Virus record (IMG/VR): IMGVR_UViG_3300029841_000003
Length of the DNA: 64,000 nt
DNA from: a virus
Lineage: Duplodnaviria > Heunggongvirae > Uroviricota > Caudoviricetes
Direction: 5' to 3' (one strand)
Positions 16,901 through 47,462 of this stretch are shown piece by piece. Below the pieces are notes generated by a model that had not been told where the DNA came from, made no database searches, and worked only from the letters and a program-made list of their open reading frames with translations. Both the position numbers and the translations under genes were made by a program. Each line of letters starts with the position of its first letter. Position 1 is the stretch's first letter.

Positions 16901-16953
16901 AAGTTAAGTAAGGATTATTAAACAGTAAGAAATAAATTATAAGGAGATTTGGA

Positions 16954-17757: not shown

Positions 17758-17809
17758 ATCAGTCCTGTACACACGCAGCATTCTTGCAGAAAAGAGGTAA
17801 GAGAAGAAA

Positions 17810-21142: not shown

Positions 21143-21152
21143 GAAAAGATTT

Positions 21153-23781: not shown

Positions 23782-24300
23782 ATGAAAATAAAAGCAAAGC
23801 AAATAATTGTAGATGGGAGCACATCTTATAAATATTATAAACCTAAATTCTGTTGCAAAGCATTGGAAGAGAATCCTAGGATAGTTATTTCTAATGAATA
23901 TCCTGATAACTACTTATGTAGAACTTGTGAAACTATAGAATGCCATGGTTGTGACTATAAAACTGATGAAACTTTTGGAATTTTCTTTTACATAAGCGAA
24001 GAAGTCCAAGACTGGGAAGATACATGGCCTGAAGACTATTATTACCCTCTTAAATTCTGTCCATTTTGCGGAGAACCAATTGAAGTTGATGTCATAGAAA
24101 CCATTGATAAAACAGAAGAAGCAGAAAAGGTATCTGAGGTTGCAACGAAGCTACGAAAACAGTTATGGACATGTGATAGCAAGAAAAAGTGTGCAGAGTT
24201 AGAAAAAGAGATAAGGAACTTAGACGATATAGTAAATTATTATTATTCAACAGGAGAAATTGATGAAAATAGAGAAAATCAAAAAATTGTTGAAAAGTGA
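23782..24300 (+). CDS. Cys-rich zinc-finger-like protein
   Basis: 172 aa with CC..C, CRTCETIECHGC and CPFCGEP motifs. Confidence 0.35.
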   Translation: MKIKAKQIIVDGSTSYKYYKPKFCCKALEENPRIVISNEYPDNYLCRTCETIECHGCDYKTDETFGIFFYISEEVQDWEDTWPEDYYYPLKFCPFCGEPIEVDVIETIDKTEEAEKVSEVATKLRKQLWTCDSKKKCAELEKEIRNLDDIVNYYYSTGEIDENRENQKIVEK

Positions 24301-25294
24301 ACACTATGATTTCTTAAGAGCGAACGAGCACCTGGGGAGTAACATAATTCTATTAGGCTTAGGTGGGTCTCATGCTTATGGTACAGATACAGAAAACTCC
24401 GATCTGGATATTAGGGGTTGTGCTTTAAATAAAAGAGAAGAAATCCTGATTCCTACACATAATTTTGATCAGGTAACGGAAGAAACAACAGATACAACAA
24501 TCTATTCTTTTAATAAATTGATAACTCTATTGTCAAACTGCAACCCAAACACAATTGAGCTGATAGGATTGAAGCCAGAACATTATCTTTATATTCATCC
24601 AATTGGTCAAGAACTTCTTGATAATGCTGAAATGTTTTTATCTAAGAAAGCGATCTATTCTTTTGGAGGCTATGCTACAAGCCAGCTAAGAAGGCTCGAT
24701 AATAAATCTGCCAGGAAATTGGGACAAGAAGAAAGAATGCAGCATGTTCTTAATAGTATTATGAATGCTTTTTATACTTTCCCTGAAAAGTATTTCAATT
24801 TTCCAGAAGATGCAATAAAGCTTTATGTAGATAAAGGTATTCAGGAAGATTATGAAACAGAAGTATTTATGGATATCCAGTTGAAGCATTACCCTTTGAA
24901 TGATTATCAGGGGATGTGGGCCGAAATGAAAAACATTGTTAGGGATTATTCCAAAATTGGGAAGAGAAATAAGCATGCCATAGAACATAATAAGTTAGGA
25001 AAGCATATGTGCCATTTAGTGAGATTGTATCTTATGTGTTTTGATATTCTTGAAAAAGGCAAAATTATTACATATAGAGAAGATGATCATGAGCTTCTTA
25101 TGGCTCTACGTAATGGAGAATATTTGGATGCAAACAGTCAGCCTATCCCAGAATTTTTTGAAATGGTAAACGAGTTAGAGAAAAGACTTGAGTATGATTC
25201 AAAGAATACCTCATTGCCTGATAAACCAAATTATAAAGCTATAGAAGAATTTGTAATGTCTGTCAATGAAAGAATTGTATTAGGAGAGATTTAA
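24260..25294 (+). CDS. Pol-beta-superfamily nucleotidyltransferase (minimal NTase fold, PF10127-like)
   Basis: NTase signature GLGGSHAYGTDTENSDLDIRG (GS...D.D). 344 aa. The substrate is unknown. Confidence 0.5.
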   Translation: MMKIEKIKKLLKSEHYDFLRANEHLGSNIILLGLGGSHAYGTDTENSDLDIRGCALNKREEILIPTHNFDQVTEETTDTTIYSFNKLITLLSNCNPNTIELIGLKPEHYLYIHPIGQELLDNAEMFLSKKAIYSFGGYATSQLRRLDNKSARKLGQEERMQHVLNSIMNAFYTFPEKYFNFPEDAIKLYVDKGIQEDYETEVFMDIQLKHYPLNDYQGMWAEMKNIVRDYSKIGKRNKHAIEHNKLGKHMCHLVRLYLMCFDILEKGKIITYREDDHELLMALRNGEYLDANSQPIPEFFEMVNELEKRLEYDSKNTSLPDKPNYKAIEEFVMSVNERIVLGEI

Positions 25295-25296: not shown

Positions 25297-27918
25297 ATGA
25301 ATTTTAATGGATTAAAAAGTAGCGAAGTAGAGGTTAGTAGGACTACATATGGAAGTAATAAGCTTCCGGAACCTGAATTGAAAAAATGGTATCATTTTGC
25401 TAAGGAAGCATTAACTGAACCAATTACTATGATTCTAATAATAATTGCTTTGTTTCAGTTGGTTTTAGGCGCTATGGGAGTAATGTCTCTTTCTGAACCT
25501 GTAATGATTATAGTGGTTTTAGCTATTGTTACTGGAATTGCTATTAAGACAGGTCTAGGCGTACAGAAATCTGCAGCAGAGCTAAGAGCAAAAACGGCAG
25601 TTAGATATTGTGATGTTGTCCGAGATGGAAACGTACAGACAATTAATAAAGATGATCTGGTAGTAGGTGATTTAGTTCTATTGAGAACTGGACAAGAGAT
25701 TTTTGCAGATGGATTTATTGTTGATGGAGAAATTTCTGTTAATAACGCCGCTATCAATGGAGAGACAAAAGAATGTAGAAAAATTCCTAGTGCTAATTAT
25801 AAGCATGTTAAAACAACATCAACTACTGCATATACGGATCAGTGTTCTCTCTTTGCAGGAACAGTTATCATGTCTGGTGAAGGAAAAATGATTGTTACAG
25901 ATGTTGGTGTTAATACAGTTAATGGTGATACTCTTGTCAAAATGCAGACTTTAGAGCCTCCTAAGACAGCTCTTGATATTGCTCTGGATCATTTGTGTGA
26001 TTTTATTTCAAAATGGGGAACAATTGCGGCAGCATTAGCATTTGTAATTATGACAATTACAGGTATCTTAAATGCTGGAAGCTTAAGTCAGTATTTCTTA
26101 GGAAGTATTCTTGAAAGTATTCAGAAGGTAGCACAGAATGTCTCAAATGCATTGACAATTATTGTTGCGGCTGTACCGGAAGGTCTGCCACTCATTGTAA
26201 AACTTGTAACTAAACAGAATGTATCGACAATGGAAAAATTCAATATTCTTGCGAAGAATACTGGTAAAATTCCTGAATTGGCGTATGTTAATTTAATTTG
26301 TACGGATAAGACAGGAACTCTCACAACAGGTGAAATGACCTCTACAGTTATGATTAACGGTAACTGTCAGGATATTTTTAATAAGGAAAGTTCGCTCAAC
26401 GAGCTAATTGATTTAAACATTTGCATGAACAATAGCGCAGTGTTTGACTCTAATGGAAACATCACTGGTGGTAATTCGATTGATCGAGCAGTGCTTGATA
26501 TGCTTTCTCCTGAAGATGCACAAAAAATACAGAATAAAGCTATCATAAAGAAACGTGTTCCATTTAGTAGTGAAAATAAATTCTCTGCAATTACTTTAAG
26601 TAATGGAGCAAATGATTTTACTGTTTATAAGGGTGCACCAGAAAAACTGATTGAGAAATGCAAAACTTATCTCGATAATGATGGCAATGTAACTGAGCTA
26701 ACAGAAGAAAAACGAAAAGCTTTGAAAAGTCATATTAAGGGATTAACAGAGAAAGCAATGAGGTGTATTGCATTGACTATCTCAGATAAAGCTGATGATG
26801 GTCTCCCTGATGAAATGAATTTCCTTGGAGTCATTGGAGTTGTTGACCCGGTTAGGAATGAAGTTCCAGAAGCAGTAAAAATTGCTCATAAAGCTGGAAT
26901 TCAGGTAATTGAAATTACTGGTGATTGCATGGAGACGGCTAAGGCTGTTGCTATGGAAGCTGGCATTTATAAGCCTGGAGACTTAGCAGTTACTAATGAT
27001 GAGTTTGAGGCAATGTCAGATGTAAAAGTAAAAGAAATTATTCCACAGTTAAGAGTAATTTCCAGATGCTCACCGAATACGAAACTTCGTCTTGTAACAT
27101 TAGCGCAAGAAATTGGAATGTCTGTAGCAATGACAGGTGATGGTGTGAACGATGCTCCTGCATTAAAGAAAGCAGATGTAGGCTTTGGAATGCAAGACGG
27201 ATCTGATGTAGCAAAAGAAGCAGCAGACATTGTTTTGACGGACAATAATTTTGCAAGTGTAGTAAAAGCAGTCGAACTTGGTAGAACATTTATGCATAAC
27301 ATTATGATGTTCCTTGAATTCCAGCTGCCTATCAATATTTCGTTGTTGATCTTAAGTATGGTATTTCCAATTATTTCTGGTGGCTCTGCTCTATTAGCAG
27401 CAGTTCAGATCCTTATTGTAAATATCATCATGGATTCACTTAACTCATTAAGCTTTGGTGGAGAACCGCCAAAAGAAGAATATATGAATGAAGAGCCTAT
27501 CATGAAAGGATCCGGATTATTTATCCGTGGAGCGAAAGGGAGAATTGCATTAAGTTCAATTGTATTTATTGCTTTATTTGGTGTAATTACATTTGGTCCA
27601 GTTGGGAATATGTTTACAACAAAACTTTCGGCTATGACAGCGAGATTCGCTTTATTGTGTTTAATGGCAGTATTTAATGGATTCACTATTAGAACAGATA
27701 GTATGAATCTTTTCAAAGGAATTAAAAATAATAAATTATTTGTGTATATCGCATTAGGTATTTTTGCAATGACTGTAGTTTTGTGTAATTTTGTAGGAAA
27801 TTTAGTACAGACAACTCCAATGGATGTTAAACAGTGGATTGTAGTCTTAGTGACAGCTTTTATGATTGTGCCTGTAGATTGGATTAGGAAAGCAATTTGT
27901 AAGAAAGGAAGTAAATAA
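25297..27918 (+). CDS. P-type cation-transporting ATPase
   Basis: 873 aa with the phosphorylation motif ICTDKTGTLT, a TGD motif (ITGDCMETA), the hinge MTGDGVNDAPALKKADVGFGM and multiple TM segments at both ends. Confidence 0.85.
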   Translation: MNFNGLKSSEVEVSRTTYGSNKLPEPELKKWYHFAKEALTEPITMILIIIALFQLVLGAMGVMSLSEPVMIIVVLAIVTGIAIKTGLGVQKSAAELRAKTAVRYCDVVRDGNVQTINKDDLVVGDLVLLRTGQEIFADGFIVDGEISVNNAAINGETKECRKIPSANYKHVKTTSTTAYTDQCSLFAGTVIMSGEGKMIVTDVGVNTVNGDTLVKMQTLEPPKTALDIALDHLCDFISKWGTIAAALAFVIMTITGILNAGSLSQYFLGSILESIQKVAQNVSNALTIIVAAVPEGLPLIVKLVTKQNVSTMEKFNILAKNTGKIPELAYVNLICTDKTGTLTTGEMTSTVMINGNCQDIFNKESSLNELIDLNICMNNSAVFDSNGNITGGNSIDRAVLDMLSPEDAQKIQNKAIIKKRVPFSSENKFSAITLSNGANDFTVYKGAPEKLIEKCKTYLDNDGNVTELTEEKRKALKSHIKGLTEKAMRCIALTISDKADDGLPDEMNFLGVIGVVDPVRNEVPEAVKIAHKAGIQVIEITGDCMETAKAVAMEAGIYKPGDLAVTNDEFEAMSDVKVKEIIPQLRVISRCSPNTKLRLVTLAQEIGMSVAMTGDGVNDAPALKKADVGFGMQDGSDVAKEAADIVLTDNNFASVVKAVELGRTFMHNIMMFLEFQLPINISLLILSMVFPIISGGSALLAAVQILIVNIIMDSLNSLSFGGEPPKEEYMNEEPIMKGSGLFIRGAKGRIALSSIVFIALFGVITFGPVGNMFTTKLSAMTARFALLCLMAVFNGFTIRTDSMNLFKGIKNNKLFVYIALGIFAMTVVLCNFVGNLVQTTPMDVKQWIVVLVTAFMIVPVDWIRKAICKKGSK

Positions 27919-27919
27919 A

Positions 27920-28687
27920 ATGGGATTTTTTGATAAGTTATTTGGGAAAAAAGATGAGGAAGCAGCAGTAGAGTTATCTTCTGCTGTAACTCAGCAACCT
28001 GTATATGAAGAAAAGTTACAGACAATTGATATGTCTAAGCACAGTGAAAATCTTGGCAAAGTACTTATTGATATGTCTAAGGGAAGCAAGATTGATATGA
28101 CAAAACATACAGCTAGAGTAGCTCTTGCAATGGATTATTCAGGAAGTATGGATTGGCTGTATGATAATGGATCTGTACAGGAAACCATTTCTCGTTTGTT
28201 GCCTATTGCTCTAAGATTTGACGATAATGGAGAACTTGAGAGTTGGTTGTTCTCAAATGGAGCGGAGCGCTTAAAAGCTGCTAACGCTGATAATTATAGT
28301 AGTTATGTTAAAAATGTTATGAAAAAAGCTCATATGTATATGGGTGGTACTAATTATGCTCCTGTATTGAAAGAAATGGTTACATATTATAAAGATATTG
28401 AGCCAAGTGAGATTCCAGCATTTATCATCTTTATTACAGATGGTGAGAACAGTGACACTTCTGCCACCAATGCAGTTATTAAAGAGCTTTCAGAGTACAA
28501 CATCTTTGTACAGTTCATAGGAATTGGGGATGAAGATTTTGGTTATTTAAAATCCCTTGACAATATGAAAGGTAGAAAACATGATAACACCGGTTTTACA
28601 GCAGTAAAAGACATGAATAAAATGTCTGATGAACAGTTATATACAGAGATTCTTCGTCAGTATAAAGACTGGCTGAATAATAAATAA
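27920..28687 (+). CDS. von Willebrand factor A (vWA) domain protein, TerY-like
   Basis: MIDAS motif DYSGSM, then GGTNYAP and IFITDG, which are typical vWA blocks. Confidence 0.6.
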   Translation: MGFFDKLFGKKDEEAAVELSSAVTQQPVYEEKLQTIDMSKHSENLGKVLIDMSKGSKIDMTKHTARVALAMDYSGSMDWLYDNGSVQETISRLLPIALRFDDNGELESWLFSNGAERLKAANADNYSSYVKNVMKKAHMYMGGTNYAPVLKEMVTYYKDIEPSEIPAFIIFITDGENSDTSATNAVIKELSEYNIFVQFIGIGDEDFGYLKSLDNMKGRKHDNTGFTAVKDMNKMSDEQLYTEILRQYKDWLNNK

Positions 28688-28704
28688 AAAGGAGATAAAG
28701 AGAT

Positions 28705-29343
28705 ATGGCAGTAATCAACATGAGCAAAAATCAGAAAATTAGTATGGTAAAAGAGGATGGTACAGGTATTAAGAACTTCTTCATTGGAGTCAATTGGGAT
28801 CAGAACCGTTATGCTGGTGAAGCAGATATTGACTTTGATATCAATGGATTTTTAACAGATTCAAGTCGCAAAGTAGTATACCCAGAAGATTTAGTAAACT
28901 ATAAAACCTATGAAGATGGGTCTGCATATCCTTGGGTAGATTATTCAGGAGACAATAAAACTGGTGATGATTCTCAGGGAATGATTTTTAATGGAAAGCA
29001 TTATGACGAATATTTTATTGTACATGCTGACACATTCCCGAAAGATAAAACAGAATTTACTATCTGCTTAACAATTTTTAGGGCATTACAGCGTATGCAG
29101 AACTTTGGAATGGTCTCCAATGCAGTTATGACAATTTGTGATTACGACAATCCAGATGGTGATAAGTATGAATATGATCTGTCTGAGAATGAGAACTTTG
29201 AAAAATTGAATGCAGTAGAAATGGGTAAATTATACCGTTACGGAGATGGATTCAAATTCCAGGCATTAGGTTCCGGTTATGTGGGAGGTATGACAGAACT
29301 GTTTAAAAACTTTGGGCTTGATATTGATGAGGGGAGAGACTAA
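28705..29343 (+). CDS. terD: TerD-domain protein (tellurium-resistance/stress TerD family)
   Basis: Blocks align by eye to TerD: ISMVK, GVNWD, SGDNKTGDDSQG, FGMVSNAVMTI, GKLYRYGDGFKFQALGSGYVGGMTELFKNFG. Confidence 0.8.
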   Translation: MAVINMSKNQKISMVKEDGTGIKNFFIGVNWDQNRYAGEADIDFDINGFLTDSSRKVVYPEDLVNYKTYEDGSAYPWVDYSGDNKTGDDSQGMIFNGKHYDEYFIVHADTFPKDKTEFTICLTIFRALQRMQNFGMVSNAVMTICDYDNPDGDKYEYDLSENENFEKLNAVEMGKLYRYGDGFKFQALGSGYVGGMTELFKNFGLDIDEGRD

Positions 29344-30089
29344 TGAACTTATTTGAAATTGTGGTCCTAATAGCTGTAGTAATTAGTATTGTGTTATTTA
29401 TTGCACGTACAACTCAAATTGGTAAGAGAGTGTCACTTAGAGTTGCTGGTACAGCAGACGAAGCAATTCAAAAAGATGCAGCCACCCCTGAGGGAGCTAA
29501 AGCTTATTATAACGCTGCTATTGAAAAGAAAGAAGATGAACTTCAGCAGGAAAATGTAAGATATCAACAGATGCTTGGTAAGATTTCCAATTATGAAGAT
29601 GACCTGTTCCATTTGAAGAAAGATGCCATGAAAGCAGATGTAAATGTAAATGCTTGTGTGGATCGAGGAGATGACGAAGCAGCAAAAGTCTACTTAAAAG
29701 AACAACAGGAGCTGAATGATAAGATTGATTTTATTAAGAGTACATTAAAAGAATGGAAAGAGAATGCTGACGTACAGAAAGAAAAAGTAGAAGTATTACA
29801 GCAACAGCTTAATGATTTAAAAGCAGAAAAAGAAAGTGCTGTTTTAACTTTGGAAACAGCTCAGGCATCAAAAGCTTTTAATGTAACACCGGGAGTATCT
29901 TCTAGTGAAGAGGAAAAGATGCTAGAGAAAGTACGTGACGGAGTTAAAAAGCAAAAAGAGGCTGCTGATGGAGCTAGGATCGTTTATGAAAGTTCTACTA
30001 TTGTGCAAAAACAGCGTCTGGATAAGAAAATGAAAGATGATGAAATTAATAAAAAGTTGCAGGAACTGAAAACAAAGAAAGGCAAATAA
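29343..30089 (+). CDS. PspA/IM30-like coiled-coil protein with N-terminal TM helix
   Basis: N-terminal hydrophobic segment followed by a long coiled coil. Stretches such as DRGDDEAAKVYLKEQQEL resemble PspA (KDREDLARAALIEKQKL). Confidence 0.4.
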   Translation: MNLFEIVVLIAVVISIVLFIARTTQIGKRVSLRVAGTADEAIQKDAATPEGAKAYYNAAIEKKEDELQQENVRYQQMLGKISNYEDDLFHLKKDAMKADVNVNACVDRGDDEAAKVYLKEQQELNDKIDFIKSTLKEWKENADVQKEKVEVLQQQLNDLKAEKESAVLTLETAQASKAFNVTPGVSSSEEEKMLEKVRDGVKKQKEAADGARIVYESSTIVQKQRLDKKMKDDEINKKLQELKTKKGK

Positions 30090-30516: not shown

Positions 30517-30939
30517 ATGATTAATAGTTTTACTGGAGATTATTACTTTTTAAGTAACTTTTATATGGCCCCGGTAAGTTATAACGGATGGGACTATACA
30601 AATAATGAAGCAGCTTTTCAAGCACAGAAAACAAAAAATCGTAGACTAAAATTTCAGTTATTCTCTCAAGCTAGCCCATCAGAAGCAAAGGCAGCAGGTA
30701 GAAAGATTGATTTGAGATCAGATTGGGAAGAAGTGAAAGATAAAGTAATGTATGAAATCGTACTGGCTAAATTCACTCAGAATCCAGACCTTAAGGAAAA
30801 ATTACTTGCTACAGGAGATGAATATTTGGAAGAGGGTAATACTTGGGGAGATACTATTTGGGGAACTGTAGATGGAGTTGGAGAAAATAGGCTTGGGAAG
30901 ATACTTATGAGAGTGAGAGATGAATTAAATGAAACTTAA
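30517..30939 (+). CDS. NADAR (YbiA/DUF1768) domain protein
   Basis: FTGDYYFLSNFY...AFQAQK...W..VK..VMYEIVLAKFTQNPDLKEKLLATGDEYLEEGNTWGDTIWG matches the NADAR family pattern (F.G....LSNF...Eh.fqA.K...W......M...l.KF.q...l...Ll.Tg...L.E....D..WG). Confidence 0.65.
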   Translation: MINSFTGDYYFLSNFYMAPVSYNGWDYTNNEAAFQAQKTKNRRLKFQLFSQASPSEAKAAGRKIDLRSDWEEVKDKVMYEIVLAKFTQNPDLKEKLLATGDEYLEEGNTWGDTIWGTVDGVGENRLGKILMRVRDELNET

Positions 30940-31340: not shown

Positions 31341-31518
31341 AGGAGAGAGTATGAATCCAGTATTTGTATTTTTAATATTGGTTGGAGCTGTAGTTTTATG
31401 GTTCCTATTATCTGCATTGTTTTATCCATTCGGACGATTCTTGCATAGAATTTGGAAAGATGCAGTAGACGAAATAAACAGAGAAGAAAATAAAGAAAAA
31501 GATAAGGAGAATGAGTAA
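31330..31518 (+). CDS. small membrane protein
   Basis: 62 aa with a TM helix (VFVFLILVGAVVLWFLLSALFYPF). Confidence 0.3.
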   Translation: MNYKGESMNPVFVFLILVGAVVLWFLLSALFYPFGRFLHRIWKDAVDEINREENKEKDKENE

Positions 31519-32489
31519 TGAAAAAGAAAAAAGGTTTTTTAGGTGGGGTTGGATTAGCAGTAATAATTGCAGCAGGATTAATTTGTGTAGCAAAGTGCAC
31601 AGTAAGAGTTCCTGCTGGTTATGTAGCTGTAGAATACAAGATGAACGGTGGAATTTCAAAAGATACTCTTTCACAGGGATGGAATTTGATTTCACCTACA
31701 GTAAAAACATCACTGTATTCAATTGGTATTGAACAGTCTTATCTGACTTCAGAAGATAAAGGTGATTCACCAAAAGATGAGAGTTTTAAAACTCCTACCG
31801 CAGATGGGAAACAGCTTCTTGTTGATTTGGAATTCTCTTATAAATTCGATCAGGATCAAGTTGCTGATGTATTTACAAGATTTAAAGGTCAGTCCGGAGA
31901 AAGTGTAAAAAATACTTTCATTAAACCAAAGATGAAAGCGTGGACACAGGAAGTAACTGCTAAGTATCCGGTAACAGATGTATTTGGTGATAAACGCCAG
32001 GAACTGAATGAAGCACTTGACAAATACTTGAAAAAGAAATTTGAGCCATATGGAATCATCATTGATACTGTAAACTTTACTTCAATTTCTACAGATGATG
32101 AAACTCAGGCTGCTATTCAGAAGAAGGTAAATGCACAGCAGGAACTGGAACTTGCAAATATTGAAGCTAAGACTGCAAAGGTACAGGCAGATAAAGATAA
32201 GGAAGTTGCTCTCATCGCAGCGGAGCAGGATAAAGAGAAAGCCGCTATTGAAGCTGAACAGGCGAAAATCACTGCGGAAGGTAAAGCTGAAGCTACAAGA
32301 ATTAAAGCGGATGCTGAAGCAGAAGCAAATAAAAAGATCGCTGAGTCACTTACTCCAGAACTTATTGAGAAACAGAAGATTGATAAGTGGAATGGTGATG
32401 TGCCGAAGGTACAAGGTGGAAATGCTGCAACAATTGTTGACGCAGGAGAATTAACATCAGGCAATGTAGCAACTGTTGAAAATAAATAA
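31518..32489 (+). CDS. SPFH/band-7 (prohibitin/HflC-like) domain membrane protein
   Basis: N-terminal TM helix, an SPFH-like core (VPAGYVAVEYKMNGG ... TVNFTSIS) and a C-terminal Ala/Glu/Lys-rich coiled coil. Confidence 0.65.
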   Translation: MKKKKGFLGGVGLAVIIAAGLICVAKCTVRVPAGYVAVEYKMNGGISKDTLSQGWNLISPTVKTSLYSIGIEQSYLTSEDKGDSPKDESFKTPTADGKQLLVDLEFSYKFDQDQVADVFTRFKGQSGESVKNTFIKPKMKAWTQEVTAKYPVTDVFGDKRQELNEALDKYLKKKFEPYGIIIDTVNFTSISTDDETQAAIQKKVNAQQELELANIEAKTAKVQADKDKEVALIAAEQDKEKAAIEAEQAKITAEGKAEATRIKADAEAEANKKIAESLTPELIEKQKIDKWNGDVPKVQGGNAATIVDAGELTSGNVATVENK

Positions 32490-33343: not shown

Positions 33344-33582
33344 TTAAGCAAACCATGGGATGGATTTCTGCTATATGTGGAGTAATTGGAGCTGTATGTA
33401 GTGGTTGGAAGTTAATGCTTTTGCCAGTAGTAACAATATTAAACATGATTGCAGATAAAAAATTAAACCTGTGTATTTTACTAATTTCAATTATGAAAAT
33501 GTTTTTTGCGATACCCATAGCATATTTCATGATTCTTATAGGATTTTCAATCGCTACATATTGTTGGAGGTGGTGGAAATAA
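33340..33582 (+). CDS. small membrane protein (2 TM)
   Basis: Hydrophobic 80-aa ORF. Confidence 0.3.
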   Translation: MIKQTMGWISAICGVIGAVCSGWKLMLLPVVTILNMIADKKLNLCILLISIMKMFFAIPIAYFMILIGFSIATYCWRWWK

Positions 33583-35270
33583 TTTGGATTACGGGTGATA
33601 CACATGGGGGTTGGATCCATAGATTAAATATGGACTCGTTCCCGGAGCAAAGAGAGATGACTAAAGATGACTATGTAATTGTTCTTGGAGATTTTGGGAT
33701 ATGGAGAGATTCACCTCAGCAAAGGTGGTATCTGAATTGGCTTGAAGAGAAGCATTTCACAACACTCTTTATTGATGGAAATCATGAATGTTTTCACAAA
33801 GATACAGATATTTTAACAATTAATGGTTGGATGAATATAAAAGATGTTGTTGAGAGTAAGGAAAATATTCTTGTAGCTTCAGTAAACATGGAAAATCACA
33901 ATATTTCATATTCGAAACCATTAAAAAAAGTTGTAAATTATTGTGATAAATTAATTGAAATTACAAGCTCTAATTTTAAGCAATGTGTTACTTTGAATCA
34001 TGATATTATAGTAAATAACAAAAAAATTAAAGCGAATGAATTATTAAAAAATAAATTTCGTATTGAAGACTTTAGATTTCATATAAATAATATAAATCCA
34101 GGAATTAATATAAGAAATGAGATTATTGAATTAATAACATCTGTTATCATGGACGGAACAATCGTTGATTATAGTCAAATAGATAGCAATTCAAAAAAAA
34201 TGAGAGTGCAATTCCATTTAAAAAAGCTTAGAAAAATAGCATACATAAAAAGTATCCTTGATAGATGCAAGATAAAATATACTGAGAGATATATGGGACA
34301 AAGTGAATGTTATTTGAATATTTATGGAGATGATGCAAGATATATAAATTCATTTTTAACAGGAATAAAGCAAATACCTTGTGAGTGGAGAAATATGTCA
34401 GATATTCAATTTATGTACTTTCTTAATGCTATAGTTAATACAGATGGAACATCATCTGGGAACAATATCGTATGGAGGACCACATCAAAGCATAACGTTG
34501 ATATTGTAACCGAGCTATGCATTAAAAATAATTATGATATCAATGTGATTACTTTAGATAATGCATCAGGCTACACTAATGATGGCTTAGTTCAATATCA
34601 AATTTCTATAGGGAAAAATAAGCGACTTGATGAAAAAATTAAATATGAAATTATTGAGTACAACGATAATGTATACTGTTTGACAATGGATAATGGTACT
34701 TTAATAACACGATACAAAATGTGTCCTGTAGTGAGCGGTAATTGTTACGATATATTAGATTCTTATCCAGTAGAAGAATGGCATGGAGGTAAGGTGCATT
34801 TTATTAAACCATCAGTAATTCATCTCATGAGAGGACAAGTATTTGATATAGACGATTTAAAATTTTTTACTTTTGGCGGAGCTGCAAGTCATGATATTTC
34901 AGATGGAGTATTAGAGATTGACGATCCAAGAATAAAGGAATGGAGGTATGATCCAGATAAGATGTATCGAATCAATCATATTTCATGGTGGGAGCGAGAA
35001 ATGCCAAATCAAGAAGAGATGGATGAAGGTATAAAGAACCTGGCAGAACATGACAATAAAGTAGATTTTATCCTGACACATTGTACAGCTTCTTCTACAG
35101 CAGCATTATTATCACATGGATTATATAAACCGGATAAGCTAACTGATTATTTGGAAGAGATCAGATGTAATGTTGACTATGGACGTTGGCTGTGTGGGCA
35201 TTACCACGACAATAAAGCAATAACGACAAAAGATATAGTTCTATATGAACAGATTGTGAGGATCGCATAA
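33573..35270 (+). CDS. calcineurin-like metallophosphoesterase interrupted by an intein
   Basis: GTG start after RBS GGAGGTGG. Metallophosphoesterase motifs GDTHGG, GDFG and GNHE. The intein (33789-34742) is inserted immediately after GNHE. The extein resumes with CYDIL...GGKVHF...GHYHD. Confidence 0.6.
   Translation: MEIIWITGDTHGGWIHRLNMDSFPEQREMTKDDYVIVLGDFGIWRDSPQQRWYLNWLEEKHFTTLFIDGNHECFHKDTDILTINGWMNIKDVVESKENILVASVNMENHNISYSKPLKKVVNYCDKLIEITSSNFKQCVTLNHDIIVNNKKIKANELLKNKFRIEDFRFHINNINPGINIRNEIIELITSVIMDGTIVDYSQIDSNSKKMRVQFHLKKLRKIAYIKSILDRCKIKYTERYMGQSECYLNIYGDDARYINSFLTGIKQIPCEWRNMSDIQFMYFLNAIVNTDGTSSGNNIVWRTTSKHNVDIVTELCIKNNYDINVITLDNASGYTNDGLVQYQISIGKNKRLDEKIKYEIIEYNDNVYCLTMDNGTLITRYKMCPVVSGNCYDILDSYPVEEWHGGKVHFIKPSVIHLMRGQVFDIDDLKFFTFGGAASHDISDGVLEIDDPRIKEWRYDPDKMYRINHISWWEREMPNQEEMDEGIKNLAEHDNKVDFILTHCTASSTAALLSHGLYKPDKLTDYLEEIRCNVDYGRWLCGHYHDNKAITTKDIVLYEQIVRIA
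33789..34742 (+). mobile_element. intein with LAGLIDADG homing-endonuclease domain
   Basis: Begins with block A CFHKDTDILTINGWMNIKDV (C..DT.I....G). Two LAGLIDADG-like motifs are present (LITSVIMDGTIV and FLNAIVNTDGTSS). Ends VVSGN, followed by the extein Cys (+1 C at 34743). 318 aa in frame. Confidence 0.6.
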
Positions 35271-35482
35271 TGGCAGAGCTTACAGAAAACGCTAAAGATT
35301 ATATTGAATGTCTAAAAGATATATTACAAAGAAAATATCTACTGTCAGGTGAGAAAGCTTTAGATATGATTGCAACTTCTTATATTATGGAGTCTCTTAT
35401 TGATTACCCAGAAGAGACATTACATGATGATATTGAAGCACATGCAGATAATATTTATGAAGATTGGATAGGTGAGCTATGA
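35270..35482 (+). CDS. hypothetical small acidic protein
   Basis: 70-aa ORF whose start overlaps the upstream stop. Confidence 0.3.
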   Translation: MAELTENAKDYIECLKDILQRKYLLSGEKALDMIATSYIMESLIDYPEETLHDDIEAHADNIYEDWIGEL

Positions 35483-35627
35483 AAACATTTTTATCAATTT
35501 TGAATATTCTATGCTGGGGTATTCTAGGAGCCTATTGTTCATCAATAGGGATACATGGAACAAGATTTTATATAATATTACTAATTGTTGGCGTTATTGA
35601 TATACTTAGTGTTGTGGTGAGTAGCTT

Positions 35628-36185
35628 ATGAATTATTATATTTCAGACTTACATATTGGTCACACAAATGCATTGGCATTCGATGCTAGACCATTTAAGA
35701 CAATAGAAGAGAACGATGAAACTATTAAAAATAATTGGAATTCAGTAGTTGGCTTAGATGATGATGTTTATCTTTTGGGAGATATTAGTTGGTATGGCTC
35801 AACTAAAACATTGGAGTATTATAGCCAGTTAAATGGTAGGATTCATTTAATAAAAGGAAATCATGATAATAAGATTCTGAAAAACAAAGATTTACAGAAT
35901 TTATTTGTAGAAATAGTTGATTATAAAGAACTATACCTTAATCCAAAAGAGAGTATTATTCTTTGTCATTATCCGATTCCTTGTTTTAAGAATCATTACT
36001 ATGGTTGGTATCATTTATATGGACATGTACATACAGGTTTTGAAAATAATATGATGCAAAGAACAAAGTATGAAATGGAAAATCTATATAATACACCATG
36101 TAAAATGTATAATGTCGGAGCAATGCTGCTGAATTATACTCCTAGAACTTTAGAAGAAATAACAGGGGGAGCTACGTGTTTATAA
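35628..36185 (+). CDS. metallophosphoesterase (calcineurin-like)
   Basis: Motifs DLHIGH, LLGDI, GNHD, CHYP and GHVH. Confidence 0.6.
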   Translation: MNYYISDLHIGHTNALAFDARPFKTIEENDETIKNNWNSVVGLDDDVYLLGDISWYGSTKTLEYYSQLNGRIHLIKGNHDNKILKNKDLQNLFVEIVDYKELYLNPKESIILCHYPIPCFKNHYYGWYHLYGHVHTGFENNMMQRTKYEMENLYNTPCKMYNVGAMLLNYTPRTLEEITGGATCL

Positions 36186-36351
36186 CTAGAAAAAAGATGA
36201 AAAAGAAAATTACTGATACATATAACAAAGGATTCCATATAGGAAAACTTTATGGTGTTACTAAAATATATAACGAAGTAAAAGGAGGCAACACAGATGT
36301 AATTGATCTGTGCAAGAGAATTATGAGTGAGAAAGAGGTATTCAATACTTA

Positions 36352-37650
36352 ATGTATTGTGCTTACATTACTGAGCTTAAGCAACTTCGTAAACACAGCA
36401 ATGCTGATAGGCTCCAGCTTGGTACCGTTTTTGGAAATACGGTTATTGTTGATTTAAGTTATTACGAAGGGCAGAAAGTTGTATTTTTCCCGGTTGATGG
36501 TCAGCTAGGAGAAGAATTTGCAAAAGAAAACAATTTACTGCGTATTAAAAATGAAGATGGAACAACTACAGGTGGATATCTTGATCCTGTAAAACGAAAC
36601 ATTAAAGCTATGAGACTGCGAGGTGAAAAATCAGAAGGATTGGTTTTACCAGTAGAATCTCTTAGTAAATGGACTGATATAAATAAATTATCTTTAGGAG
36701 ATCAAATTACTGTACTTGATGGGACAGTTATCTGTAAAAAATATATTCCAAGATCAAATCATAAAAAATCTAACAATGGTCCGAAAGTAAAAACTCCAAA
36801 TTTAAAAAACAAATTTCCTTATTTTAAAGAACATGCTGATACAGAACAGTTAGCATATAACTTAAATGCCTTTAAACCAGGAGATACTTGTTACATTACT
36901 TTGAAAATGCATGGCACATCTGGTCGAACAGCAAATGCAATAGAAGTAACTACTAAGAAAAAGACTCTACTACAGAAACTTTTTTGTAGACCGGCTCCTG
37001 TTATCAAAGAATGGAAAATAGTTACTGGAACAAGAAGAGTTGTACTCAATACATTTGAAGGCGGTTACTATGGGAATGATAAATTTAGACAGAAATATCA
37101 TGACTACTTTATTGACAAACTGCCAAAAGGAATGGAAGTGTTTTATGAAATCGTAGGGTGGGTTGATGGTACAGAGCAGACCATTATGGGAACCTGTTCC
37201 AACACTAAAATTAAAGATAAAGAAGTTAAGAAGCTTTACGGTGATGAAACAGTGTTCTCTTATGGGTGTACTCCTGGTACTTCTGATATTTATGTTTATA
37301 GAATGACTATGACCAATGAAGATGGGATTATTACAGAGATTCCATGGGAAGAAGTAAAGAATTGGTGTGATCGTTTAGGAGTTAAACATGTACCTGAATT
37401 TGATAAATTCCTGTTTACTACTAAAGAAGATCTTATGGAGCGTGTAGAAAAATACTATGATGGGCCTGATCCAATAGGGGCGACACATGTTAGAGAAGGT
37501 GTAGTTGTAAGAATTGATAATAGAAGTAGCTTTAAGGCTTATAAACACAAGAATTTCACTTTCAAGGTCCTTGAAGGATTGATAAAAGATTCCTCTGATA
37601 CACCGGATATGGAAGAGGCACAAGAAATTATTGAGGAGGAAACTGTATGA
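36352..37650 (+). CDS. ATP-dependent RNA ligase (Rnl2-like nucleotidyltransferase)
   Basis: The motif I variant LKMHGTS (K-x-H-G, as in T4 Rnl2 KIHGTN) sits within a 432-aa protein. It is neighboured by phosphoesterases and an HD phosphohydrolase. Confidence 0.5.
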   Translation: MYCAYITELKQLRKHSNADRLQLGTVFGNTVIVDLSYYEGQKVVFFPVDGQLGEEFAKENNLLRIKNEDGTTTGGYLDPVKRNIKAMRLRGEKSEGLVLPVESLSKWTDINKLSLGDQITVLDGTVICKKYIPRSNHKKSNNGPKVKTPNLKNKFPYFKEHADTEQLAYNLNAFKPGDTCYITLKMHGTSGRTANAIEVTTKKKTLLQKLFCRPAPVIKEWKIVTGTRRVVLNTFEGGYYGNDKFRQKYHDYFIDKLPKGMEVFYEIVGWVDGTEQTIMGTCSNTKIKDKEVKKLYGDETVFSYGCTPGTSDIYVYRMTMTNEDGIITEIPWEEVKNWCDRLGVKHVPEFDKFLFTTKEDLMERVEKYYDGPDPIGATHVREGVVVRIDNRSSFKAYKHKNFTFKVLEGLIKDSSDTPDMEEAQEIIEEETV

Positions 37651-38417
37651 CATTAGCAGAGAGATTTTTTAAGGAAGAATTAGAAGTATTTGAAAATGAT
37701 GATATTCAGGAATTTTGTATTGAATTACTAGATACTGCGCCTACATATTTCTGGCAAGTGTCTGCTTCAAGTACTAACAAGTATCACCCTGATTATACAG
37801 TTGGTTTTATGGGACTTGCTAAACATGTAAAAGGAGCAACTAGATTCTTAAATCATATGCTGTCAATTGATTGTATCAAGAGTCAGTTTACATCAAGAGA
37901 AAGAGATATGCTACGAACAGCTATTATGAACCATGATGATGAAAAACTTGGGCGTAATGGCAGTCAATATACTCTTTTTAAACACCCGTTACTTATAGCT
38001 GAGAGAATAAAATCCTATAAAGGATTTGAATGGTTGCCGGATGAAGAATTGGATTATATTGCAGACTGTTGCGCCTCACATATGGGTGAATGGAACACAG
38101 ATAAAAGAAGTAAAGATGAGCTGCCATTACCAGAAACAAAAGGTCAGATGATAGTTCACTTAGCAGATTATTTAGCATCAAGAAAAGATTTAACAGTATC
38201 TTTTGATGAAACTGAAGTAGATGAACTGATGAAAGAATTCAAACCTACACCAGAAACATATCTTATGCCATTCGGCAAACATAAGGGAGAACCACTCTCT
38301 GAAATTCCAGATAGTTATTTAGGATGGTTGAATGATCAGAATCCATCAGAACCTCTGAAAACACTACTTGCTGAAGCTTTAGGCATTAGCGGAAGCATCT
38401 TTGAAGAGGAGGAATGA
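37647..38417 (+). CDS. HD-domain phosphohydrolase
   Basis: H...HD...H...H...D pattern (KYHPDY, AKH, MNHDDEK, ASHMGEW, HLADYL). Confidence 0.5.
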   Translation: MTLAERFFKEELEVFENDDIQEFCIELLDTAPTYFWQVSASSTNKYHPDYTVGFMGLAKHVKGATRFLNHMLSIDCIKSQFTSRERDMLRTAIMNHDDEKLGRNGSQYTLFKHPLLIAERIKSYKGFEWLPDEELDYIADCCASHMGEWNTDKRSKDELPLPETKGQMIVHLADYLASRKDLTVSFDETEVDELMKEFKPTPETYLMPFGKHKGEPLSEIPDSYLGWLNDQNPSEPLKTLLAEALGISGSIFEEEE

Positions 38418-38592
38418 GATGGAAACACGAACAACATTATGCCAGTGCACTCGTTGTGCTTCAGTGTTTGAATGGAATGAAAGAAAAAATAATAGATGTC
38501 CAGAATGCAAAGGCATATATACAGTTATTAGATTCGCTAACCCGTCAGATGAAGAATATTTAGATAGAGTTAGCATGAGATTTAGTGAATAA
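38401..38592 (+). CDS. zinc-ribbon small protein
   Basis: CQCTRC ... CPEC (two CxxC pairs) in 63 aa. Confidence 0.35.
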   Translation: MKRRNEMETRTTLCQCTRCASVFEWNERKNNRCPECKGIYTVIRFANPSDEEYLDRVSMRFSE

Positions 38593-38657
38593 GTCGTTCA
38601 ATCATGAACGCTTATCAATATACCAAACAATATTATTTATAAGAGGAGACAATATTC

Positions 38658-43991: not shown

Positions 43992-44978
43992 TTGACTGAA
44001 ATCAGTCAGAAAATCCGACAAGTAACTGAGGAGGATAAGGGGTTACCTTATCTCTCCTACAGTAAAGAGAGTAACTTTGATCACTGTCCACTGAGCCACA
44101 AATTAAAGTATATAGACAAAAACTTTTCAAAGAAATCGTCTCTTCCTATGGAAATTGGTTCTATTTTACATAAGGCATTAGAGCTTAAAGGAAGAATGAT
44201 AATGGAAGGTAAGACAGTAGATTATGACTATCTTAAAAGCATTACAGAAGAGGGCTATTTAGAGACTGATGAGAAGTCGGATAATCACATTCTTGGTATA
44301 AAAGACCTCAAAAAGAAATATTTTGATGAGTTTTTTACTGCTGATAGTAAGTCAGGTATGAACTATTCAGAAAAGATGGATATCTTTTATAACAAAGTAT
44401 TACCATCTAGGATTGATAGTAAAGAGTGGACTCCCGTAGCAGTAGAACAGAGATTTGAATTTGTATATGACGACAGAGTTATTATACATGGTTTTATTGA
44501 TAGAGTGGATAAGAATGCAAAAGAGCAGCTAAGGATTACTGACTATAAATCCTCAAAGGCCGTGTTTAGAGATGCAGATATAAAAACACCTATGCAACAT
44601 GTAATTTATGATCTGGCATGTATTCATTTATATGGACAGCCTGCAACAGACCATGTGTATGATTTTATTCTTATAGATGCTATTCAAGGAGCTGACGAAG
44701 GTGTATGTACCAAAGGCTATCTTAACAGAGGAATTAAGAAACTGGACAAGGTGTTAAATGAAATGGATGAAATGGAAATTAAAGGCGAGTATCCTCCCAA
44801 ACCAACTCCATTATGCTACTGGTGTCCATTCCACAGCACTTCCCCAAATGCTGATCCTAAGTTTTCTGGTCTATGTCAGTATCATAGCTTATGGACACCT
44901 GAGAAAAAATCATTTGCAGTACTTAATCCTTATGGACAAGAAATAAAGAAAGAAACTAAGAGAAAGTTGGTGTTCTAG
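43992..44978 (+). CDS. PD-(D/E)xK nuclease, Cas4/RecB-like with C-terminal Cys cluster
   Basis: IHGFIDRVD...ITDYKSSK motifs (D...D/ExK) and C-terminal CYWCPF...C (Fe-S/Zn cluster), typical of the DUF2800/Cas4 family. Confidence 0.55.
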   Translation: MTEISQKIRQVTEEDKGLPYLSYSKESNFDHCPLSHKLKYIDKNFSKKSSLPMEIGSILHKALELKGRMIMEGKTVDYDYLKSITEEGYLETDEKSDNHILGIKDLKKKYFDEFFTADSKSGMNYSEKMDIFYNKVLPSRIDSKEWTPVAVEQRFEFVYDDRVIIHGFIDRVDKNAKEQLRITDYKSSKAVFRDADIKTPMQHVIYDLACIHLYGQPATDHVYDFILIDAIQGADEGVCTKGYLNRGIKKLDKVLNEMDEMEIKGEYPPKPTPLCYWCPFHSTSPNADPKFSGLCQYHSLWTPEKKSFAVLNPYGQEIKKETKRKLVF

Positions 44979-47462
44979 TGAGAATAGAGACACATGCGCA
45001 TACAGAATTTAGTCAGCTTCGTATGTTGGACTGCATCGTAAAAGTACCTCAATTAATAAAACAAGCTGCATCTCTTGGACTTTCAGGAGTTGCTATCACT
45101 GACCATGAGTCTGTATCTGGTCATGTGAGATTTATTCAAACAATTAAATCCATGAAGTCTTCCGGTGAACTGCCGGAAGATTTCAAAGGAATACTTGGTA
45201 ATGAAATATATTTAGTTGACAAATTAAATATATCAGAAGATGGAAAGAAGTCTTGTGATTCTCCATTTTATCATTATATTCTTCTGGCTAAAGATGAAAT
45301 AGGGCATAAGCAGTTAAGAGAACTTAGTTCATTAGCATGGGACAACAGTTTTTATACAGGAAGGATGGAACGTGTTCCTACATTGAAAAGTGATCTGGAA
45401 CATGTAGTTAAATCTAATCCTGGACATCTGATTTCAACGACAGCATGTTTAGGAGGAGAATTAGGCAAGTCTCTATTAGCAGGAGAAAATTATATGGATT
45501 TTCTTCTCTGGAACCAGCAGTTATTTGGTAAAGATTTTTACTTGGAAATGCAACCGGGACTGTCAGAAGAACAGATAAAGTTGAATCGAGAGATTGTAAA
45601 ATTAAAGCATCAATTAGGAATAAAAGCTACTATTGCCTGTGATGTCCACTATTTGAAACAAGAGGATAGAGAAATTCATGCTGCTTATCTTAATAGTCGC
45701 GATGATGAAGAAAGAGAGTTAGGTGATTTCTATGAATCAACTTGGATGATGACCAATGAGCAAATTCATCAGAGGATGGATTATCTTGGGTATGAAGAAG
45801 TGGAAGATGCATTGAAGTGTTCTCTGGAGATTGGTGAGAAGGTTGAAGAGTATGATTTGTATTGTCCAACTATTGTTCCTGGAGCTGACATCCCTGATTT
45901 TGAGTTAAGTGATTTCTTTGGCAATTATTATGATCGCTATGAATACATATCTAAATTCGCTCATAGTGATAATGTTTATGATAGATATTTATTAAAACTG
46001 ATAGAAGATGGATATTATGAAAAGATTCCTTATACTACTTTCGGTAAAGTAAAATTTTTTGAGACTTTAGATAGAATTGAAGTTGAATTAAAAGAAATGT
46101 GGCTTGTTACTGAAAAGCTTGGTACAAGTATTTCTTCCTATTATATATCAACACTTGAGTTGGTTAATATTATGTGGGAAGAAGGAGATTCTTTAGTGGG
46201 TGTAGCCAGAGGTTCAGTAACAGGAATGTTTACAATGTATCTCATTGGCATTACTCAGATGAATCCTTTACAGTGGGGACTGCCTCATTGGAGACATATT
46301 TCCCATGAAAAAGTTGAACTCAGTGACGTAGATATCGACACACAGCAAGATAGAAGACTAAAAATCATTGAAGCTGTGAAACGTCGCAGAGGTGAAAGAA
46401 AAGTACTTAATTGTAGTACTTTTAAAACAGAGGGTAGTAAATCAGCTATTATTACTGCTGGTAGAGGATTAGGATTAGATTCAGATATCACTCAGTATTT
46501 ATCTAATCTTATCCCTGTTACCAGAGGTCAAACTTGGAGTTTGCATGATTGTCTTTATGGGAACGAAGAGAAAGAACGTCAGAGACAAACTGAATTTGCA
46601 AATGAAGTCAAAAAATACGACAAACTTTTAGAAACGGCTATGACTATTGAAGGGCTTATATGTGGAAGAAGTATACATGCTTCAGCAGTATATTTGTTTA
46701 ATGAAGATTTTTTGGCTCACAATGCTAGGATGAAAGCTCCAAACGGTATTTATATCACTCAATTTAATATGAAAGATTCTGATTATTGTTCTGGTCTTAA
46801 AATGGATTTCTTAACCATTCAGGCATTAGATAAGATTAGAACTTGTATGAATTTGCTAATTGATGCGGGATATATGAAATGGCAAGGATCACTGAGAGCT
46901 ACATATAATAAATATTTACATCCAGATGTACTTGATTATGATACTAAAGAAATGTGGGATATGGTTGCAAAGAATGATGTGACAGATCTCTTTCAGTTTG
47001 ATACTGCAGTTGGGCTCCAGGCAGCTAAACGAATCAAACCCCATTCCTTAGTAGAGCTTGCAACTGCGAACTCAATTATGAGACTTATGGTATCAGGAGA
47101 AGGCGCTGAACAGCCCATTGACACTTATATTAGGTATAAGAATGATATTAATGAATGGTACAAATGCATGAGAGATGAGTACCGTTTGACAGAAAGTGAA
47201 ATAAAAATATTAGAGAAATATCTATTACCTGTATATGGAGTAGGAGATACACAGGAAATTGTAATGGAAATTTCTATGGATGATCATATTTCAGGATTCA
47301 ATGTTACACAGAGTAATAAGTTAAGAAAAGGTATTGCTAAAAAAGATGAAAAACTGCAGGAAGCTATGAAAAAGATGTTCTTTGAACATGGCAAAGAGAT
47401 TGGAACTTCAGAGAATCTGCTGAACTATATCTGGAAAGAAGTTATAGGAAAGCAGCTTGGGT
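44978..47462 (+). CDS. dnaE: DNA polymerase III alpha subunit (DnaE-type), exon 1
   Basis: PHP domain N-terminus (ETHAHTEFS...ITDHESV) and the polymerase core. The exon ends ...KQLG-Y. The ORF-track read-through tail (LNTAQVKPCERMQ...) is intron sequence. Confidence 0.75.

Follow-up and report, generated by a model that had tools for sequence, protein, structure and literature searches.

The 64,000-nt stretch of IMG/VR virus record IMGVR_UViG_3300029841_000003 (Caudoviricetes), hereafter referred to as the window, raises the question of whether its phage carries a set of enzymes for mending broken RNA, centred on a gene for an ATP-dependent RNA ligase. Phage kits that rejoin broken tRNA, such as T4 Pnkp/Rnl1, are a classic form of counter-defence and, to our knowledge, gene neighbourhoods have led to the prediction of many more, few of which have been tested. 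The right-hand part of a large prophage of gut Clostridia takes up ~62 kb of the window, the rest being flanking DNA; the prophage is of low GC content (0.30–0.36), with nearly every gene on the plus strand. Since megablast with positions 33400–38600 gave no match among GenBank phages, the phage has, by this search, no close isolated relative.

An earlier note had described positions 33573–38417 as an 'RNA end-healing and sealing cluster' of two metallophosphoesterases (here MPE1 and MPE2), an 'Rnl2-like' RNA ligase and an HD phosphohydrolase. All four genes exist at these coordinates on the plus strand, and the interpretation is partly supported; the core healing enzymes, a kinase–HD fusion (Pnk-HD) and a nucleotidyltransferase of the RlaP family, are encoded outside it. 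In our reading, the phage rather probably has the enzymes of a modular pathway for the healing and sealing of RNA breaks; the most plausible substrates are tRNAs, of the host or of the phage itself, that metal-independent ribonucleases, e.g. anticodon nucleases, have cut. This is based on predicted domain identities, conserved catalytic residues and recurrent linkage of the genes across diverged phages, from which we infer the enzymatic activities and the substrate.

An RNA ligase of the predicted Rnl5 type

As the earlier note had proposed, the ligase was searched against protein profiles; it matched PF09414 RNA_ligase (37 bits, cut-off 27) and phrog_968 'RNA ligase' (E=1.2e-71). An N-terminal OB domain (PF21189, residues 6–101) is followed by the nucleotidyltransferase domain (PF09414, residues 180–398) and there is no C-terminal module, the motif V lysines K398/K400 being situated 32 aa before the end. 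Against TIGR02306 (RNA_lig_DRB0094, DraRnl) the protein scored 59.6 bits, with just residues 6–221 aligned and an equivalog cut-off of 151.15; judged by its sequence, it is a homologue within a divergent phage subfamily and not an equivalog.

Searches of the PDB with the ligase, as a single sequence and as a 31-sequence profile, returned noise only. An AF2 model built from 31 homologues (pLDDT 79.5) was found by Foldseek to align with NgrRnl of Naegleria gruberi across ~420 columns (E=1e-15), whereas the match with T4 Rnl2, eight orders of magnitude weaker, is confined to the nucleotidyltransferase core (~287 columns, E=2.8e-7), as are the matches with DNA ligases (E≥4e-4). Because of the N-terminal OB domain, the TIGR02306 match and the full-length alignment of its model with NgrRnl, the ligase is, by predicted fold, of the Rnl5 type (DraRnl/NgrRnl) and not of the Rnl2 type; its N-terminal OB domain and the missing C-terminal domain also do not agree with the label 'Rnl2-like', which had to be dropped.

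Motif I reads T183-L-K185-M-H187-G188 (TLKMHG). A set of 67 non-identical sequences, with identities down to 28% and including phages at 28–54%, shows T183, K185, H187 and G188, together with E266 (motif III), E382, G383 and V385 (motif IV, EGVVV) and K398/K400 (motif V), conserved in ≥97% of its members. The KxHG motif had been pointed out in the earlier note, which held that a lysine not conserved on alignment, or grouping of the protein with DNA ligases or capping enzymes, would speak against an RNA ligase. The lysine in question, K185, is conserved, and motif I is KMHG and not the KxDG of DNA ligases and capping enzymes. The possibility that this is the replicative DNA ligase of the phage was likewise rejected on the KxHG motif, the Rnl5 fold and the presence of a separate LigA gene.

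The ligase shares with characterised Rnl5 enzymes the order of OB and nucleotidyltransferase domains without a C-terminal module, motif I (TLKMHG versus TEKLHG), motif IV EGVVV and the motif V lysine, the latter three having been mapped in DraRnl by mutagenesis (PMC1807946). It differs in being only ~17% identical to NgrRnl, in its additional ~90 aa, with a low-confidence linker at residues 135–151 and a hairpin past motif I, and in belonging to its own phage family, phrog_968. Its genetic partners are also different, namely Pnk-HD and RlaP, whereas the partner of DraRnl is the DEDDh-like DR_B0095. The physiological substrates of Rnl5 enzymes have been described as unknown (PMC4408790, PMC5397189) and their physiology as 'uncharted' (PMC5397189).

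Gene neighbourhoods of the ligase

Loci around relatives of the ligase were collected from IMG/VR (80 loci) and from bacterial genomes (80 loci), and homologues of the window genes were mapped on them. Clustering of the ligases at 90% identity, with the window's own clade set apart, gave 80 other lineages, to which the counts out of 80 below refer. A scan of bacterial genome contigs with the single ligase sequence found nothing; the loci were obtained by an alignment-based scan. Gut metagenomes of humans and animals are rich in such ligases and in their Pnk-HD partner: at least 8000 relatives of the ligase were scored, and the exact Pnk-HD protein is present in 6784 index blocks.

Pnk-HD was found in the flank of 50 of the 68 IMG/VR loci with a ligase <85% identical to that of the window, in every case co-oriented with the ligase and mostly ≤1.6 kb downstream. 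Counted by lineage, a full-length Pnk-HD is present in the flank in 41 of 80 (within 3 kb in 38), and RlaP in 40 of 80, often between the ligase and Pnk-HD. The linkage of ligase and Pnk-HD extends to bacterial contigs of Roseburia, Lachnospiraceae MAGs, Virgibacillus and Clostridium. Among diverged loci, 20 of 51 have tRNA genes within 10 kb of the ligase. Two observations on individual contigs should be added: L060 carries a phage-borne tmRNA and a CUA (amber-reading) tRNA (3715–4401), ~6 kb upstream of the ligase relative, and the tRNA-like genes of L069 (944–3920) have unusual anticodon loops.

The closest isolated phage is Bacillus phage vB_BcoS-136 (MH884508), whose ligase is 54% identical to that of the window and is directly followed by an AAA_33+HD protein, the pair being annotated as 'RNA ligase' and 'polynucleotide kinase'. 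Unlike in the window, the two genes are adjacent there, an ATP-dependent DNA ligase is encoded nearby, and the annotation shows neither an MPE nor an intein nor HD/ExoX_C neighbours.

In the window itself the ligase (from 36352) is separated by 12–25 kb from RlaP (from 24260) and Pnk-HD (from 10955). The kinase–HD fusion had been placed at 10958 in the earlier note; it is indeed present, and is a conserved neighbour of the ligase in other phages, but it starts at 10955. The recorded gene begins with the ATG at this position, and a start at TTG 10928 was rejected. Numbered from that TTG, PF13671 covers residues 13–143 (2.8e-20) and PF01966 residues 179–251 (1.8e-5); the protein also matched TIGR04075 bacter_Pnkp (E=2.4e-11). 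A P-loop kinase and an HD phosphoesterase are thereby predicted in a single polypeptide, as in HD-Pnk enzymes, and the C-terminal domain is of the HD/HDIG and not of the HAD (DxDxT) kind that marks T4-type Pnkp. The PDB relatives of the kinase domain are PSTK, the kinase domain of Clostridium thermocellum Pnkp (4gp7/4jst, E ~1e-7) and T4 Pnk.

The phage tRNA genes mentioned in the earlier note form a cluster that begins 1.2 kb downstream of Pnk-HD (Table 1). Within it, a RAGATH-27 RNA (Rfam RF03100; 14745–14832, plus strand; 91 bits, gathering score 76) lies between a 212-aa open reading frame (ORF) and tRNA-Leu. An AAA/nSTAND3-like ATPase (11901–13001) directly follows Pnk-HD; it was considered as a conserved partner and rejected, being absent near every other ligase cassette examined.

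Metallophosphoesterases as candidate 3'-end modules

MPE2 scored 30.5 bits against PF00149 (cut-off 21.5) and has the intact motifs SDLHIGH/LGD/GNHD/GHVH; its other matches are a weak one with TIGR04123 PdeM (1.7e-5) and PDB entry 1xm7 (3.7e-9). We regard it as a candidate 3'-phosphate or 2',3'-cyclic-phosphate esterase. MPE1 scored 28.8 bits against the same profile and cut-off, with the motifs GDTHG/GDFG/GNHE/GHYH in its spliced form. Sequence searches with MPE1 and MPE2 returned no Pnkp phosphatase domain from the PDB. Fusions of MPE2 with a kinase or a ligase were sought, and all 120 homologues among the matches listed were stand-alone proteins of ~185 aa.

MPE1 and MPE2 each occur in the ligase flank of 13 of 80 other lineages and are thus not constant neighbours of it. 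Their positions relative to Pnk-HD follow a pattern. In nine lineages the Pnk gene encodes the kinase only (158–204 aa, without an HD domain), and MPE2 directly follows it in eight of these, as compared with none of the 41 lineages with the Pnk-HD fusion (Fisher p=1.7e-8). The eight loci (L060, L073, L075, L079, L113, L115, L117 and L118), where the kinase-only Pnk + MPE2 module is found in place of Pnk-HD, are mutually deep-diverged, their kinases being 29–45% and their ligases 43–64% identical. In two more lineages (L057/L058 and L112) MPE2 is located just upstream of the ligase. As for MPE1, it is directly downstream of RlaP in 7 of the 13 other lineages that have it, all seven lacking a full Pnk-HD in the flank; the order RlaP–MPE1, upstream of the ligase, is seen in L003, L059, L066/67, L075, L079, L081/82 and L116. 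Because the positions of MPE2 and MPE1 complement the absence of Pnk-HD, gene context makes it plausible that HD, MPE2 and MPE1 stand in for one another as the 3'-end phosphoesterase module of a single pathway.

Two MPE2 homologues were sampled independently of the ligase. For one of them, another PF09414 ligase is encoded at a distance of 3.3 kb. The second, on an unrelated 236-kb contig (L174), has SIR2, PARP and AAA genes around it but no ligase in its vicinity; the AAA/nSTAND3-like ATPase that follows it (6562–7665) is of the same kind as the one after Pnk-HD in the window. MPE1 was also considered as a Bxb1-type recombination directionality factor, which was set aside, its relatives in phage databases being only unannotated gut phages and cluster J 'metallophosphoesterases' (~27% identity).

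Proposed pathway and alternative explanations

In the proposed pathway, a break would leave a 2',3'-cyclic-phosphate (or 3'-phosphate) and a 5'-OH end. The kinase domain of Pnk-HD would phosphorylate the 5'-OH and its HD domain would clear the 3' phosphate to 3'-OH, with MPE2 and MPE1 as additional or alternative enzymes for this step. Where the 3' end had been trimmed, RlaP would restore one or two nucleotides; a Pseudomonas RlaP adds nucleotides onto damaged tRNA 3' ends in vitro, as seen with tRNA mimics (PMC12776372). Finally, the ligase would become adenylylated at Lys185, transfer AMP to the 5'-phosphate and seal the 3'-OH/5'-PO4 break while helices hold the ends together. The HD/ExoX_C protein adjacent to the ligase would stand outside this pathway and go with the adjoining DNA-replication module. 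RNA is favoured over DNA as the substrate since a separate NAD-dependent DNA ligase is encoded by the phage, RlaP acts on RNA, the kinase is akin to RNA and tRNA kinases, and tRNA arrays are nearby. Phage kits of ligase, kinase, phosphoesterase and RlaP, occasionally with calcineurin-like or HD phosphatases, have already been predicted (PMC7824862).

A more far-reaching version, which we put forward as tentative, would have Rnl5-type ligases do the sealing in a modular pathway widespread among phages, in which RlaP rebuilds nucleotides lost to 'repair-defying' anticodon nucleases (RloC-like) and the 3' phosphoesterase is interchangeable between Pnk-fused HD, MPE2 with kinase-only Pnk, and MPE1 with RlaP. 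This phage has all three, perhaps for several RNA end types.

Several points weigh against RNA repair as the function of these genes. The repair of loop breaks is typical of Rnl1 and Rnl4 and not of Rnl5. With its score far below the TIGR02306 cut-off and its ~90 aa in excess of DraRnl and NgrRnl, the ligase may differ in substrate preference from either. The three core genes are spread across 26 kb in the window, and because of this dispersal co-regulation cannot be read from an operon. Roughly 24 of 80 lineages have neither kinase nor MPE in the available flank, although many of these contigs are short, and both MPE families are widespread in phages without an evident link to a ligase. In addition, the ligase or the ligase/Pnk-HD pair usually heads a DNA-replication module, which downstream of the window ligase consists of YorF-like, AAA_24, YorH, DnaB, PD-(D/E)XK and PolIII-alpha genes. 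Characterised Rnl5 enzymes are Mn-dependent, act best on nicked duplexes in which an RNA strand supplies the 3'-OH, and have little activity on single strands (PMC4408790, PMC5397189). The sole in vivo phenotype of an Rnl5 enzyme, radiation sensitivity with delayed genome reassembly, has been read as DNA 'ribo-patch' repair (PMC5397189).

The last point leads to an alternative that we regard as unlikely yet serious, i.e. that phage DNA or RNA–DNA junctions are the target of these enzymes in the course of replication and repair: where host nucleases leave 5'-OH/3'-phosphate nicks, Pnk-HD and the MPEs would heal them, RlaP would add a short ribonucleotide patch and the Rnl5 ligase, which depends on a ribonucleotide 3'-OH, would seal the resulting RNA-OH/pDNA nick. 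For Rnl5 enzymes the 5'-phosphate strand and the template may be DNA, and loss of DraRnl delays the reassembly of the genome after irradiation (PMC5397189, PMC1807946). Runella HD-Pnk heals DNA as well as RNA ends (PMC6097658), MPE2 has its weak similarity to PdeM, a ligase-associated DNA-damage endonuclease, and the one or two nucleotides from RlaP would make the two-ribonucleotide 3' end that DraRnl requires. However, the substrates of RlaP were RNAs both in vivo and in vitro (PMC12776372), the kinase domain is closest to the RNA- or tRNA-acting PSTK, C. thermocellum Pnkp and T4 Pnk, many of the loci have tRNA arrays nearby, and a dedicated NAD-dependent DNA ligase is present in the phage, its relatives also having LigA or an ATP-dependent DNA ligase. 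The position of the ligase immediately upstream of the replication module, here and in most relatives, would suit a function on DNA, but may merely mirror shared early or middle expression.

It is also conceivable, if quite improbable in our view, that the genes came together by chance in a mosaic early region, the ligase and the distant Pnk-HD forming one system and the MPEs being unrelated to it, with a role in protein dephosphorylation (as lambda phosphatase), in the degradation of cyclic-nucleotide defence signals or as a replication or excision accessory similar to the metallophosphoesterase-type directionality factors. Such an origin would agree with the occurrence of MPE1, MPE2 and the HD protein each in the ligase flank of just 9–13 of 80 other lineages, with the MPE2 relatives in many Vibrio and Pseudomonas phages and the MPE1 relatives in cluster J mycobacteriophages, annotated merely as 'phosphoesterase', and with the ligase-free surroundings of MPE2 in L174. 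Calcineurin-like phage enzymes have also been predicted to degrade signalling nucleotides (PMC7824862), and metallophosphoesterase-type directionality factors of mycobacteriophages likewise bear inteins beside a conserved motif (PMC5050341). On the other hand, the exclusive pairing of MPE2 with kinase-only Pnk (8 of 9 versus 0 of 41) and, in flanks lacking Pnk-HD, that of MPE1 with RlaP would be hard to explain without a shared pathway, the other independent MPE2 homologue is close to a PF09414 RNA ligase, and the genes in the window overlap as one tightly packed unit. We retain the healing and sealing of broken RNA as the preferred reading.

Comparison with known RNA repair systems

Similar to T4 Pnkp + Rnl1, the counter to PrrC, the set described here comprises a phage-encoded 5' kinase, a 3' phosphoesterase and an ATP-dependent RNA ligase, jointly able in principle to restore broken tRNA. 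The differences are that the phosphatase is of the HD type (plus metallophosphoesterases) and not HAD, that the Rnl5-type ligase is devoid of the tRNA-specificity domain of Rnl1, that RlaP is present in addition, and that the system in the window is known from genes alone. The HD-Pnk of Runella slithyformis, as outlined in PMC6097658 with reference to Munir and Shuman (2017), likewise combines an HD 2',3'-phosphoesterase with a 5'-OH kinase and is encoded beside a polynucleotide ligase. In the window protein the order is reversed (kinase N-terminal, HD C-terminal), the ligase is of the Rnl5 type and the genes are phage-borne; Tpt1 and methyltransferase-HIT genes were not seen here.

Bacterial Pnkp/Hen1 (C. 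thermocellum) has a related kinase domain and a calcineurin-type metallophosphoesterase as the 3' healer, which is mirrored by the kinase-only Pnk + MPE2 modules of the relatives, but Pnkp unites kinase, metallophosphoesterase and Rnl4 ligase in one polypeptide, whereas the components in the window are separate genes. No Hen1 methyltransferase was found in the Pfam annotations of ~1–22 kb, 26–48 kb and the larger ORFs of 48–64 kb, the small ORFs having been only partly scanned. The likeness to RlaP repair operons (Burroughs and Aravind 2016), so far as these are summarised in PMC12776372 and PMC7824862, lies in the linkage of PF10127 with RNA ligases, polynucleotide kinases and phosphoesterases in phages and bacteria, and in the calcineurin-like and HD phosphatases as occasional components; compared with that summary, the ligase here is of the Rnl5 type, the hosts of the genes are large Clostridia phages, and the components are dispersed in the window genome.

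This kind of kit is thus already known or predicted, and annotations of isolated Bacillus phages already include the specific ligase/kinase pair. The comparative pattern supplies the Rnl5 clade with a concrete genomic context of kinase, phosphoesterase and RlaP, and two uncharacterised metallophosphoesterase families emerge as candidate 3'-end healing enzymes. The apparent interchange of HD, MPE2 and MPE1, the abundance in gut metagenomes and the polymorphic intein described below are further points of note; the general picture of phage RNA repair would stay unchanged.

An intein in MPE1

The 565-aa product of the MPE1 gene is interrupted directly after its GNHE motif by an intein (Table 1) that displays Cys1, block B TLNH, the C-terminal junction VVSGN|C and the LAGLIDADG-like motifs IMDGTIV and IVNTDGTS; its match with LAGLIDADG_3 is weak (E=0.13), and the penultimate residue is Gly where His is usual. 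On these sequence features it is classified as a class 1 intein with a homing endonuclease. In near-identical phages MPE1 is 247 aa long and reads GNHE|CYDIL precisely where the junctions had been predicted. The window and L009–L011 carry the intein, which is absent from L001, L002, L005, L006, L008, L012, L013 and L018, the two alleles coexisting among genomes with 99–100% identical ligases; because of this variation it looks recently mobile. In L001 (8129–8905), as well as in L005, L006, L010 and L018, an extra 258-aa ORF without a Pfam match is inserted between MPE1 and the gene for a 70-aa protein, which in those strains has ~69% identity. The region around MPE1 appears to be an insertion hot spot.

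The HD protein next to the ligase

The HD phosphohydrolase of the earlier note does have an HD fold, but its assignment to the repair cluster is not supported: it adjoins the ligase in just 2 of 80 other lineages. Its PF01966 score is 15.4 bits, below the cut-off of 22, with ~50%-identical homologues carrying PF01966+PF20600, and all of 34 sequences compared share H47, H60, H96-D97, H113, H145, H171 and D174. A PDB profile search returned noise only, and the best Foldseek match of the AF2 model (pLDDT 89.6) was the HD 3'-5' exonuclease YhaM (9h3f, E=6.5e-5). The gene order around homologues is SSB, primase-helicase, PD-(D/E)XK, PolIII-alpha, ERCC4 and HD-ExoX_C, which ends the module. Because its homologues follow PolIII-alpha and ERCC4 in numerous phages and seldom adjoin the ligase, the protein is probably a nuclease of the replication module and not a partner of the ligase. 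In L004 and L089–L091, where it also follows PolIII-alpha and ERCC4, no DEDD-type proofreading exonuclease was seen in the modules. One may speculate that it is a replisome-associated 3'-5' exonuclease, an HD nuclease in place of the DnaQ fold.

The PolIII-alpha gene of the window (44978–49762) consists of two ORFs, between which a free-standing NUMOD4 homing-endonuclease gene (47651–48295) has split it, with PHP, core and finger in the first piece (44978–47542) and the HHH_6 C-terminal part in the second (48374–49762). Relatives such as L004 have a single intact gene for a 1111-aa protein.

Other features of the window

Between 33573 and 38592, eight plus-strand ORFs overlap one another by 1–17 nt. 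No terminator-like sites were found on the plus strand in 32.4–39.8 kb, and a promoter/terminator scan gave no signal above chance. The small ORFs of this run are listed in Table 1 with the features discussed above.

Table 1. Coordinates and supporting matches of the features discussed
Feature	Position	Strand	Matches and remarks
NAD-dependent DNA ligase (LigA type)	8141-10186	+	PF01653, PF03120, PF00533 on identical gene in L087/L088; KMDG motif
Pnk-HD: predicted 5'-OH polynucleotide kinase (P-loop GLPASGKST) + C-terminal HD phosphoesterase	10955-11860	+	PF13671, PF01966, TIGR04075
tRNA cluster Gln-UUG, Met-CAU, Phe-GAA, Leu-UAG + RAGATH-27 RNA	13039-15262	+	
RlaP-family Pol-beta nucleotidyltransferase ('RNA ligase-associating')	24260-25294	+	PF10127 E=4e-16, 59.9 bits, cut-off 23
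MPE1 calcineurin-like metallophosphoesterase, 565 aa (247 spliced)	33573-35270	+	PF00149 E=2e-6, phrog_1649 E=1e-43, in two stretches
Intein, 318 aa	33789-34742	+	TIGR01445 intein_Nterm E=0.003
Unknown-function 70-aa protein	35270-35482	+	phrog_13182; seen in window's own clade only
Hydrophobic, membrane-like 50-aa ORF	35479-35631	+	Read from sequence; clade-specific
MPE2 small metallophosphoesterase, 185 aa	35628-36185	+	PF00149 E=5.9e-7, phrog_547 E=1.5e-43
Unknown-function 58-aa ORF	36176-36352	+	Clade-specific
Rnl5-type ATP-dependent RNA ligase (predicted), 432 aa	36352-37650	+	PF09414 5e-9, PF21189 2.9e-5, TIGR02306 2.3e-16, phrog_968
HD-domain protein (YhaM-like fold) + C-terminal ExoX-like_C/QSregVF_b, 256 aa	37647-38417	+	PF12843 3.5e-7, PF01966 0.023
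Cys4 zinc-ribbon-like 63-aa ORF	38401-38592	+	Weak HypA-like match; mostly clade-specific

A tyrosine integrase gene (60724–61986, minus strand) is followed by tRNA-Arg(CCG) (62260–62332), after which the GC content rises to 0.44 and a host-like gene with an SH3 domain is found; 60724–62332 is the probable right end of the prophage. More integrase-type genes are present at 4624–5631 and 6877–7788. The regions 15862–22791 and 30517–30939 encode a set for NAD+ salvage and synthesis (isochorismatase/nicotinamidase-like, PRPP-synthetase-like, NAMPT and NAD synthase) as well as a NADAR domain protein; these genes are likely counter-measures against NAD-depleting or ADP-ribosylating host defences. 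Genes for a P-type cation ATPase (873 aa) and for vWA-TerF-like, TerD and PspA/IM30-like proteins are arranged in a row at 25297–30089, with a Band_7 protein encoded at 31518–32489.

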